Below are positions 42,475 through 45,156 of a stretch of 64,000 nucleotides of DNA, piece by piece. Each line of letters opens with the position of its first letter. The first letter of the stretch is position 1. A program made the translations under genes and the position numbers. This DNA comes from Candidatus Heimdallarchaeota archaeon (GTDB lineage Archaea > Asgardarchaeota > Heimdallarchaeia > JABLTI01), in assembly GCA_018238155.1 (NCBI GenBank), contig JABCTZ010000033.1, forward strand, positions 32,001-96,000. The letters are read 5' to 3'. The notes under the pieces are model-generated. The model ran no database searches, had not been told where the DNA came from, and saw nothing but the letters and a program-made list of their open reading frames with translations.

Positions 42475-45156
42475 GTGATGAAGTCTAACAATAAAAAAAT
42501 AACTCTATTCATTATTTTTTGGTTAATAATAATTTCTACTGTGATAGGTCAAAGTGTTGCTCCAGATAACACTACAATCCTTGATTCAAATTCAATGACG
42601 GCTATAGAAAATTGGCGCTTCAATTTAGGTAATGATGTAGAATCATCTCCTACATTTGCAGATGTAAATAGCGATGGTCTTTTCGAAGTAATTGTTGGTA
42701 CGGGTGGTTCTGATTTTAGTAATGAACGTCTTTATTGTATAAATTCTTCAGGAGAAGAAGTGTGGAGTGCTCCTGTGGCAGGTAAAATAACTTCAAAACC
42801 AGCTATTGCTGATTTAGATGACGATGGCTCACCTGAAATTATTGTTGGCTCTAGTAATATGAAGCTCTTTTGTTTCAATCATAATGGAACTATAGAATGG
42901 ACTTATACTACCGCTTGGCATGTTATGAATTCTCCTGCTATTGCAGATTTAGATTCTGATGGTACTCTTGAAATTATTGTATGTGTTACTGATTTTGTAT
43001 ATTGTCTCAGTCATGAAGGAATTCTGGAATGGTCGATTAGCGCATTAGGTTCACATTCTAATGTTGCTGTTGCAGATTTAGATAATGATAACACATTGGA
43101 GATTATTGTTATGGCGAATTATGAAAATCATCTTTTTTGTATAAGTCATTTAGGTGATATTGAGTGGGAGGTTGCTCAAGGAGACAGCTCTAAATATCTA
43201 ATAGTTGCTGATTTAGATGCTGATGGTACTTTTGAAATAATAATTGGTACCATCAATTCTGTTGTTAGATGTTGCGATCATGAAGGGAATTTGGAATGGA
43301 CTTATACTACTGGAGGTTATATTCATTCTTCTCCAGCAGTTGCTGACCTCAATGATGATGGATATTTAGAAATAGTCATTGGGTCACACAACAGCAGTCT
43401 TTACTGCCTTAACTCTACAGGTTATGTAGAATGGATTTATACTACAGGAGACGAAATTAACTCCTCTCCGGTTATTGCTGACTTGGATGGAGATGGATTA
43501 TTAGAAGTGGTGGTAGGATCAAATGACAATAAGCTATATTGTCTATCCAATCTTGGTACAGAATTATGGACTTTTACTACTGGAGGTGATATTTACTCTT
43601 CTCCAACAATTGTTGACCTTGATAGAGATGGTATTTTTGAAATTATTTTTGGTTCCAATGACAACTATGTTTATTGTTTGAGTTTCGATGATGTAATTGC
43701 TTCAGGTGATGCCCCTTGGTATTCTCTTGGGGGTTCGATCTTTAGTACTGGACAAATTGATAGCGACAGTGATTTCCTAGATGATTTGACAGAAGATTTC
43801 TTCAATACAAATCCAAATAACTTTGATTGTGATAACGATTATTTATCAGATGGTATAGAAATAATTCTCTATCATACAAATCCTTTATCCAACGATACAG
43901 ATGGAGACGGTCTTACGGATAATTTTGAAGTAAACACTAGCCATACCGATCCAACAGCAATAGATTCAGATGAAGATGGTTTATCTGATTTTGAAGAGCT
44001 AAACGATGGTCAAGATGGGTTTCTCACAGATCCAAATAACCCAGATACAGACGGTGATGGTGTTTCAGACTATCAAGAATTTCTAGATGGCACAAACCCT
44101 ATAGATGGTAATGATTTTCTAAAAAGACCTGTTTGGTTTCTACCAGTAATTATTGGTTCATTGGCTTTTGTAGTGATAGTAATTGCTATTAGTATTGCTT
44201 TAGCTCGCAAGAGAAAAACAACTACTGAGGAAGAAGTTGAGCCTGAACCAGAGATAAGCGATACCGAGCAAGTGGAAATTGAAGAAATTCCTGAATTAGC
44301 GTTTGATGATGAAGTTGCAAGATCGCCAGAAAGTCCAGTGGTTTCTACAGATGATTTTATTAGATTACCAGTAATTCCTGTGATTTCTAAATTTGAGAAT
44401 ATTGAGTTATCAGAGAGTTCAGCCATATCAGAAGATGAGAAAACTGTTGAATTACCAGATAGTCAAGTTGTTAAAAGTAAAAAAACAATTACTCACAATT
44501 ATTTGAAAAATTTGCTTAATACCAAAAGTATTATTATAATCAGTAAAGATGGCATTCCTTTTGTTTCTCTTAATTTCGGTCTAGATTTTGATTCCAGTTT
44601 AGTTGGAGGATTTTTAACAGCGATTACCGGTTTTGGTGATGAGATTTTCGTTAATAAACAACAATCAGACAGTAGATTCAGTCAAATGGGGCATGAAGGT
44701 GGTTTGTTCTGGATTTTTGAAGGAAAATTCGTTCGTTTGGCTCTACTATTTAACAATGCACCTAATAAAAAGTTTAAGAAATCTGTTTGGAATACCTTAA
44801 AACATTTTGAAAAAACTTATCATAATGAGTTGAAAGATTTTACTGGAAATGTAAGTCAATTTGAACCTGCTCAAAAGTTACTTGAGAGCTACCTCTCTAT
44901 TCATTATCTCTATCCTATGAATATAAATGTAGAAAAGCTTGTTGATGTTAAATCATCAGAGAATAAGCTAAAGACAGTTATTGAAAGTTACATTGAAAAC
45001 TTTAGTGAAGAAGTAACACTTGATATTCATCAATTAATTGATAAATCATTTAAAGAACTTGAGAATATTACTTATGAGGAAATCCTCAACCAGATAATTA
45101 TCTTTGTTACTGAAGGTATTCTTATCCCTATATCTATTAATCCAAATCTGTTCTAA
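42475..45156 (+). CDS. Single-pass receptor-like protein: FG-GAP/VCBS propeller, Ca-binding repeats, TM, acidic linker, longin-like domain, short helical tail
   Basis: About 8-9 SSPAIADLDxDGxLEIIVGS repeats; DTDGDGLTD repeats; TM then RKRK; IIIISKDGIPF...LVGGFLTAITGFGDEIF. Confidence 0.88.
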   Translation: MMKSNNKKITLFIIFWLIIISTVIGQSVAPDNTTILDSNSMTAIENWRFNLGNDVESSPTFADVNSDGLFEVIVGTGGSDFSNERLYCINSSGEEVWSAPVAGKITSKPAIADLDDDGSPEIIVGSSNMKLFCFNHNGTIEWTYTTAWHVMNSPAIADLDSDGTLEIIVCVTDFVYCLSHEGILEWSISALGSHSNVAVADLDNDNTLEIIVMANYENHLFCISHLGDIEWEVAQGDSSKYLIVADLDADGTFEIIIGTINSVVRCCDHEGNLEWTYTTGGYIHSSPAVADLNDDGYLEIVIGSHNSSLYCLNSTGYVEWIYTTGDEINSSPVIADLDGDGLLEVVVGSNDNKLYCLSNLGTELWTFTTGGDIYSSPTIVDLDRDGIFEIIFGSNDNYVYCLSFDDVIASGDAPWYSLGGSIFSTGQIDSDSDFLDDLTEDFFNTNPNNFDCDNDYLSDGIEIILYHTNPLSNDTDGDGLTDNFEVNTSHTDPTAIDSDEDGLSDFEELNDGQDGFLTDPNNPDTDGDGVSDYQEFLDGTNPIDGNDFLKRPVWFLPVIIGSLAFVVIVIAISIALARKRKTTTEEEVEPEPEISDTEQVEIEEIPELAFDDEVARSPESPVVSTDDFIRLPVIPVISKFENIELSESSAISEDEKTVELPDSQVVKSKKTITHNYLKNLLNTKSIIIISKDGIPFVSLNFGLDFDSSLVGGFLTAITGFGDEIFVNKQQSDSRFSQMGHEGGLFWIFEGKFVRLALLFNNAPNKKFKKSVWNTLKHFEKTYHNELKDFTGNVSQFEPAQKLLESYLSIHYLYPMNINVEKLVDVKSSENKLKTVIESYIENFSEEVTLDIHQLIDKSFKELENITYEEILNQIIIFVTEGILIPISINPNLF

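Follow-up and report, generated by a model that had tools for sequence, protein, structure and literature searches.

Architecture of the 42475-45156 gene product

A 64,000-nucleotide window of a Candidatus Heimdallarchaeota archaeon genome (assembly GCA_018238155.1, contig JABCTZ010000033.1, positions 32,001 to 96,000) was analyzed with respect to a single, uninterrupted open reading frame (ORF) at 42475-45156 (+), whose 893-amino-acid (aa) product is a predicted surface receptor with a folded cytoplasmic tail. The window has a G+C content of ~30% and codes for Arf-like GTPases, HEPN/nucleotidyltransferase pairs and many large surface proteins; positions below refer to it unless another contig is named. 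The ORF starts with GTG-ATG, with a GGAG located 6-9 nt upstream, and encodes a signal peptide (aa 1-26, 42475-42552) in which a basic, K-rich n-region precedes the hydrophobic core (aa 11-29).

The ectodomain begins with an FG-GAP-type beta-propeller (aa ~41-405, 42595-43689), for which the best Pfam match was Beta-prop_ACSF4, an ACSF4/PQQ-like propeller model (2e-45), followed by FG-GAP_3 (7.5e-29) and FG-GAP (3e-19). Seven strict [AVI][AV]D[LV][DN]xD[GN]xxE[IV][IV] motifs spaced at 43-45 aa, containing the Ca-binding DxDxDG loops, and a degenerate first motif, FADVNSDGLFEVIV, yield a total of eight blades. The propeller is carried on a stalk of five Ca-binding repeats of the bacterial thrombospondin type 3 (TSP3) kind (aa 429-545, 43759-44109), in which five DxDxDxxxD repeats span aa 429-535 and which matched TSP3_bac (PF18884) at 1.9e-12 and 47.2 bits against a cut-off of 25. 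A single transmembrane helix follows (aa ~553-577, 44131-44205; Kyte-Doolittle peak 3.03), with an RKRK stop-transfer immediately on its C-terminal side (ARKRKTTTEEE) and a poorly conserved acidic linker behind it (aa 578-668, 44206-44478). This stretch of 91 aa contains 26 D/E residues, has an isoelectric point (pI) of 4.1, and varies in both length and sequence across orthologs. A first-pass annotation, made from the sequence without database searches, had described the signal peptide, the Ca-binding propeller, the TSP3-like repeats, the one membrane helix with its basic stop-transfer, the acidic linker and a signature in the tail, all of which were recovered here.

Topology was assigned from hydropathy and flanking charge. 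The tail was placed in the cytoplasm, as had been proposed, because of the signal peptide and the positive-inside RKRK, and the distribution of cysteines (11 in the ectodomain, 0 in the tail) agrees with this placement; together, these features fit a predicted type I membrane protein with one transmembrane helix. A second hydrophobic segment at aa 870-888 barely exceeded the transmembrane threshold (1.93) and was not counted, as it sits in a confidently folded helix and hairpin at the C-terminus. An artefactual gene fusion was also rejected, since the reading frame is unbroken and independent assemblies (P0002, P0003 and P0004), a genome of the same genus (G123) and NCBI contig JAUWKS010000072 all have this architecture.

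Fold and family of the cytoplasmic tail

The folded tail comprises 225 aa (aa 669-893). Scans of aa 680-893 against Pfam and NCBIfam yielded no family above cut-off, while matches to Prominin, Exo5 and Phr_regulator were far under the cut-off and were dismissed as noise. A structure model generated with AlphaFold2 on a 61-sequence alignment had a predicted local distance difference test score (pLDDT) of 91.6 and a predicted TM-score of 0.86. Its secondary structure runs b-b-a-b-b-b-a-a across residues 4-133 and continues with three helices and a hairpin, so that the tail consists of a first domain (aa 669-814, 44479-44916; a short helix, then bb-a-bbb-a-a) and a C-terminal subdomain (aa 815-893 and the stop codon, 44917-45156). 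The signature LVGGFLTAITGFGDEI is present and corresponds to the conserved helix alpha-1 of the tail, in which L30, G33 and A37 are at least 90% conserved across 61 relatives.

Structure comparison of the tail yielded Foldseek matches to Candidatus Prometheoarchaeum Roadblock3 (9jue, E 4e-5), MglB, LAMTOR/MP1-p14 and dynein LC7 as the best. VIA, which is independent of Foldseek, placed Roadblock3 (9jue_D) at Z 12.6, with a root-mean-square deviation of 1.9 over 103 residues, the VAMP7 longin domain at Z 12.1 and 12.0 (model residues 1-134 and 1-127, respectively), and the longin domain of a Lokiarchaeota Roadblock-Longin protein (8yqg) at Z 11.7; further matches to TRAPP, Mon1-Ccz1, AP sigma/mu and SRX ranked lower. 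Folding of the C-terminal region as a longin or Roadblock domain had been set beforehand as the test of the first reading, and the model does fold in this manner. In addition, the order of its elements (E,E,H,E,E,E,H,H) is that of the longin topology, bb-a-bbb-a-a.

Sequence profiles point in the direction of Roadblock. When the profile of the tail core was aligned by hhalign with that of eight PF03259-positive Roadblock proteins of the same genome, homology was recovered at 92% probability and E 5e-7, extending over strands beta1-beta5 and the final part of helix alpha-1. With upstream residues of the tail included, ~10 of them (THNYLKNLL) pair with the end of Roadblock helix alpha-1; the structure model begins after the putative counterpart of this helix in the tail. 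The 893-aa protein has no match to Roadblock/LC7 (PF03259) at the gathering score, and only two of the 61 module sequences match that model, with a best E of 0.017. Among the longin-type Pfam models (Longin, Sybindin, Sedlin and Fuz_longin_1), one of the 61 matches Sybindin (E 0.0086), and the other models are not among the matches listed. According to the model and the profiles, the tail is a predicted Roadblock/longin-superfamily domain whose sequence is closer to Roadblock and whose C-terminal helices resemble those of longins; it is filed in neither Pfam family. The term 'longin-like' used in the first-pass annotation is consequently correct for superfamily and topology, but the profile homology is to Roadblock/LC7. 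An NPRL2/NPRL3-like longin, as suggested by Liu et al. (10.1101/2020.10.19.343400), was recovered neither as a Pfam match in the tail nor among the 50 listed structural matches.

The longin-like description also left out the last ~80 aa, which form a winged-helix-like subdomain. Folded alone, the C-terminal 79 residues again gave three helices and a hairpin, with a pLDDT of 87.9. Structural matches included PerR/Fur (PerR being the best, Z 6.3), cullin WHB, the winged helices of MCM/ORC and the DEP domain of DEPTOR (Z 5.7), all of them generic at Z 5-6.3, with Foldseek E values of at least 0.75 and a weak DEPTOR DEP sequence match (E 0.06). Searches of PDB sequences with the single tail and with profiles likewise returned only weak winged-helix-type matches (ArsR at 0.016, DEPTOR DEP at 0.06, and a NirD-like match at 0.0016 over 22 residues), which are hints of fold only. 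The subdomain is acidic (pI 4.4), so that DNA binding is unlikely here; across the family, pI values vary between 4.2 and 10.1, and a basic surface is not consistently present.

Distribution of the module among Asgard archaea

In an exhaustive phmmer search of 1.84 billion cluster representatives, 433 representatives matched the tail at E<=1e-3. A profile of the module was positive in 191 of 201 genomes sampled from the phylum, and in 85 of 85 high-quality ones, usually with many copies each. Of 213 collected relatives, 127 carry a hydrophobic helix immediately before the module, and in 120 of these 127 the gap between the helix and the module is 21-38 aa; gaps of 60-116 aa were found, among the 213, only in this gene, its orthologs and close kin. 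Module-bearing proteins range from 306 to 2145 aa. Their ectodomains are varied, comprising Big_1, MG2/MG4, NHL, FG-GAP, and SBP_bac_5 with TSP3, and most had no Pfam match; a survey of variable ectodomains on the same membrane-anchored tail had been called for in the first-pass annotation. Soluble relatives carry the module joined to TPR, HEAT, HerA-type ATPase and helix-turn-helix (HTH) domains. These findings establish the module as a conserved Asgard-wide cassette found on many different ectodomains and also on cytosolic domains.

The same survey bears on the view that the cytoplasmic module is distinctive for this gene, other surface proteins of the window ending at the membrane. The latter observation was confirmed, as the surface proteins at 36692-39331, 8613-12176, 51188-52417 and 52979-53668 stop 5-13 residues past their C-terminal transmembrane helix, but the former was not, given that the module is pan-Asgard.

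All named relatives except one originate from Asgard metagenome-assembled genomes, representing Promethearchaeota, Hel-, Thor-, Sigyn-, Hod- and Heimdallarchaeota. The exception (P0178) is a 1246-aa relative with the bacterial label 'Candidatus Deferrimicrobium sp.'; this is probably a binning error, since every other named relative is Asgard.

Within the genome under study, ~25 module matches were detected. Six single-pass module proteins, including this gene and one cut by a contig end, were identified, four of the six being 1318-1875 aa in length. Two further proteins have five transmembrane helices and two have four, each with a Roadblock-like core. The two with five helices (contig positions C41:178684-179862 and C3:42964-44112) each end in this core, and the Roadblock-like domain is consequently membrane-attached in at least three different ways in this genome. 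A paralogous core is also present in the window, near the C-terminus of a 729-aa TPR protein at 12480-14669 (-), where it occupies 12591-12863 (-) and carries the LISxFxxAIxxFGxE signature as LISNFIAAINSFGNELFG (E 3e-9; hhalign 96%, E 2.8e-9), without the winged-helix part. Furthermore, Atlas clusters of Thermoplasmatota DUF11/CARDB surface proteins and of bacterial OmpA/BON proteins match the module fold with a TM-score of 0.55-0.58; these model-based matches are hints that Roadblock-like domains on envelope proteins exist beyond the Asgards.

Phylogeny of the module and fusions with GTPases

Three of the 14 best matches to the tail among the cluster representatives (P0008, P0010 and P0014) consist of a Ras-family GTPase and this module. 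Their GTPase domains match Pfam Ras at E 1e-49 to 1e-51 and their modules are 33-45% identical to the tail, the highest identity being that of P0008 (45%, E 2e-47); P0014 derives from a Heimdallarchaeota metagenome-assembled genome. An Atlas cluster of 376 Arf/Ras-fused Asgard proteins also matches the tail fold.

A tree of 66 modules resolved two clades with support of 98 each. The clade of 46 rows comprises the canonical short-gap receptor tails, while the clade of 20 rows comprises the soluble fusions, the three GTPase fusions and the small receptor group to which this gene belongs. According to this tree, the nearest neighbours of that receptor group are the GTPase fusions (SH-aLRT 93). 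Because Ras-family GTPases fused to the module are nearest to the receptor group, a Rosetta-stone reading of the fusions offers a hint that the module works with small GTPases. Moreover, since its tail groups with the soluble fusions and next to the GTPase fusions, this gene appears, on sequence grounds, to have recruited its tail independently of the main clade of receptors; such an origin would explain the unusually long and variable linker.

Proposed role of the tail and alternative explanations

The architecture is that of a surface protein that presents an eight-bladed Ca-binding FG-GAP propeller on a TSP3 stalk outside the cell, crosses the membrane once, and holds, on a flexible acidic tether inside the cell, a two-part module made up of the Roadblock/longin-superfamily domain and the small winged-helix-like subdomain. 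The module would act as a protein-docking platform comparable to those built from Roadblock and longin domains in MglB, Ragulator-Rag, TRAPP and Mon1-Ccz1, and would connect the surface protein with a small GTPase, or with a Roadblock/longin partner that bears a GTPase. When the ectodomain is engaged or clustered, a GTPase switch could then be recruited or regulated locally at the membrane. That Roadblock and longin domains serve as platforms for GTPases is established (PMC10933270; Levine 2013 as cited there). Such coupling is plausible because of the fold and the fusions, any binding, GTPase-activating or guanine-nucleotide-exchange activity of the module being putative, and it is given here slightly less than an even chance. 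The first-pass annotation had gone further, proposing direct signalling to small GTPases; the GTPase fusions nearest to the tail lend this indirect support, but no tie to the two GTPase genes of the window was found.

Several observations weigh against coupling to GTPases. The receptor gene is separated from the window's two GTPase genes by 13 and 41 kb, and across this genome module family members are no nearer to small-GTPase genes than random positions (P 0.27-0.72). Two related or orthologous loci showed no conserved partner gene, and a fusion of GTPase and module was not detected in this genome. One Arf-like GTPase of the window (28520-29458 (-), 312 aa) has a C-terminal extension of ~130 aa, for which no match to the module profile was obtained. 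The tree that places the GTPase fusions beside the receptor group is a quick IQ-TREE, midpoint-rooted, with SH-aLRT support only. Finally, the occurrence of the same module on TPR, HEAT, HerA and HTH proteins fits general docking or oligomerisation as well as it fits a GTPase-specific role.

The last of these points leads to an explanation without any GTPase, in which a homo- or hetero-oligomerising tail would connect surface proteins with one another or with a scaffold in the cytoplasm, such as the cytoskeleton or module-bearing TPR and HEAT proteins, and would thereby organise the S-layer-less Asgard envelope. In keeping with such anchoring, dozens of unrelated ectodomains in each genome share the same tail at a constant distance of 21-38 aa from the membrane, and the module is found on TPR, HEAT and HerA scaffold or ATPase proteins; the sheet-mediated pairing typical of Roadblock/longin domains (PMC10933270) and the lack of a GTPase neighbourhood signal in this genome also fit. 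However, this particular tail is most closely related to GTPase fusions and nearly all characterised superfamily members act with NTPases, so that anchoring alone is considered possible but rather unlikely.

Two other roles were considered in which the tail would respond to or carry a signal by itself. As a membrane-tethered regulator, the protein would bind a ligand, be cleaved in its linker and release the Roadblock and winged-helix module to act in the cytoplasm, for example on DNA through the winged helix. The winged-helix-like end of the tail, the weak ArsR/Phr-type regulator sequence matches (E 0.016; E 8e-4, far below cut-off), the HTH domains on soluble relatives and the long, acidic and probably disordered linker could all be accommodated by this scheme, yet the winged-helix matches are generic (Z <= 6.3, Foldseek E >= 0.75), the subdomain and its family have the charge properties described above, and the membrane-to-module gap of 21-38 aa in most members leaves little room for regulated cleavage. 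Release of the module is accordingly regarded as improbable. Even less probable is a cytoplasmic small-molecule sensor, whose Roadblock/longin fold, akin to PAS/GAF, would detect a metabolite and modulate adhesion inside-out. There is a structural relationship between the longin and GAF folds (De Franceschi 2014 as cited in PMC4917890), and fusions of longin-like domains to two-component signalling domains are reported in Asgards (Liu et al., 10.1101/2020.10.19.343400), but the best 50 structural matches of the tail include no ligand-binding PAS/GAF protein.

Coupling of the surface protein to a GTPase thus remains the favoured reading, and its wider form concerns the phylum as a whole. It is conceivable, if doubtful at present, that a phylum-wide family of single-pass receptors uses the constant Roadblock/longin and winged-helix cassette as a built-in Ragulator-like platform that recruits or regulates Ras/Arf/Rag-like GTPases at the plasma membrane. 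Around one hundred small GTPases and numerous Roadblock/longin proteins are encoded in Asgard genomes; in the genome under study there are ~45 small GTPases and ~30 Roadblock/longin paralogs. It is known that Roadblock/longin domains have expanded in Asgards and have been fused to GTPases (PMC4917890; PMC10933270; 10.1101/2020.10.19.343400), and the Roadblock superfamily accounts for 130 asCOGs (10.1101/2020.10.19.343400). How these proteins are linked to membranes or to the cell's surroundings is a question raised, for example, in PMC4917890, where it is noted that prenylation machinery is absent and that the known longin regulators of Rag are not membrane-bound. If true, the wider reading would explain how Asgard GTPases without lipid anchors reach membranes, and the system would be a precursor, among prokaryotes, of receptor-to-GTPase coupling or of GTPase recruitment driven by cargo receptors.

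A literature search, which did not cover Klinger et al. 2016 itself, found no publication in which the module is described as a constant tail on the cytoplasmic side of single-pass surface proteins, and the word 'transmembrane' is absent from PMC10933270 and from the preprint of Liu et al. (10.1101/2020.10.19.343400). Asgards being the prokaryotes most closely related to eukaryotes, the module family provides concrete candidates there for coupling of the cell surface to GTPases. Furthermore, the family has no Pfam or NCBIfam model, and defining it would allow the cytoplasmic ends of hundreds of giant 'hypothetical' Asgard surface proteins to be annotated for the first time.

Comparison with known systems

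The tail and the Roadblock/LC7-MglB proteins (Roadblock3, 9jue; Myxococcus MglB, 6h5b) have the bb-a-bbb core in common, in addition to the profile homology with Roadblock proteins of the same genome. The tail differs in lacking a Robl_LC7 Pfam match, in apparently retaining only a short remnant of the N-terminal helix, and in adding two C-terminal longin-like helices and the winged-helix subdomain. Moreover, Roadblock/LC7-MglB are soluble proteins of ~120 aa, whereas the tail is fused to a transmembrane helix and a large ectodomain. Longins (VAMP7, 4afi/2vx8; the Loki Roadblock-Longin protein, 8yqg; TRAPP, Mon1-Ccz1 and AP sigma/mu) have the same bb-a-bbb-a-a arrangement over model residues 1-134 (Z 11.4-12.1). 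In the eukaryotic membrane longins VAMP7, Sec22 and Ykt6, the domain is N-terminal on tail-anchored SNAREs without an ectodomain, while here it is C-terminal on a type I receptor with no SNARE motif.

A likeness to Ragulator (LAMTOR)-Rag can be drawn from architecture, in that Roadblock-carrying GTPases could in each case dock on a membrane-attached Roadblock platform, and the Asgard relatives with GTPase and module resemble Rag (GTPase with a C-terminal Roadblock domain). Ragulator, however, is lipid-anchored and has no extracellular part, and the fused Asgard GTPases are Ras/Rab-like by Pfam, not Gtr1/RagA. These fusions belong with the Asgard GTPase-Roadblock/longin fusions described previously (Klinger 2016 as summarised in PMC4917890; Tran 2024, PMC10933270), which involve the same domain superfamily; P0008, P0010 and P0014 are of this kind and carry exactly this module.

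The conservons of Streptomyces comprise the membrane sensor kinase CvnA, the Roadblock protein CvnB and the GTPase CvnD, encoded by separate genes in one operon. The logic of membrane sensor, Roadblock and small GTPase is the same, but in the Heimdallarchaeota protein the receptor itself carries the Roadblock-type domain, and its gene is not linked to a GTPase gene.

The ectodomain had initially been called integrin-alpha-like. It does have FG-GAP repeats with Ca-binding DxDxDG loops in common with integrin alpha, as well as type I topology and a basic stop-transfer after the membrane helix. Integrin alpha, by contrast, has a seven-bladed propeller, thigh and calf Ig-like legs, the GFFKR motif and a short tail, while the 893-aa protein has eight blades (~45 aa apart), a TSP3 stalk in place of any thigh or calf, no GFFKR and a structured tail of 316 aa. 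No specific kinship with integrins is implied, since FG-GAP/VCBS propellers are common in prokaryotes.

Neighbouring genes and other loci

Elsewhere in the genome, a cluster at C11:59700-64450 contains a gene for a 337-aa protein with an N-terminal Roadblock-like core and four transmembrane helices, a divergent small-GTPase gene 309 bp away from it and, ~2 kb from it, two canonical Roadblock/LC7 genes. This proximity speaks for the GTPase link, and the cluster may represent a membrane-bound MglA/MglB-like unit.

Within the window, the surface protein at 36692-39331 (+) is an 879-aa LVIVD-repeat protein with a C-terminal transmembrane helix and a tail of 9 aa. It carries the same TSP3_bac stalk (2.7e-24) as the receptor, which suggests that this stalk has been shuffled among surface proteins. 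Directly downstream of the receptor gene, at 45864-46732 (-), are two ORFs of 144 aa each, side by side, which contain several hydrophobic helices and match no Pfam family. The window also contains three toxin-antitoxin-like pairs of HEPN and minimal nucleotidyltransferase genes (31029-31725, 55102-55798 and 57014-57743).

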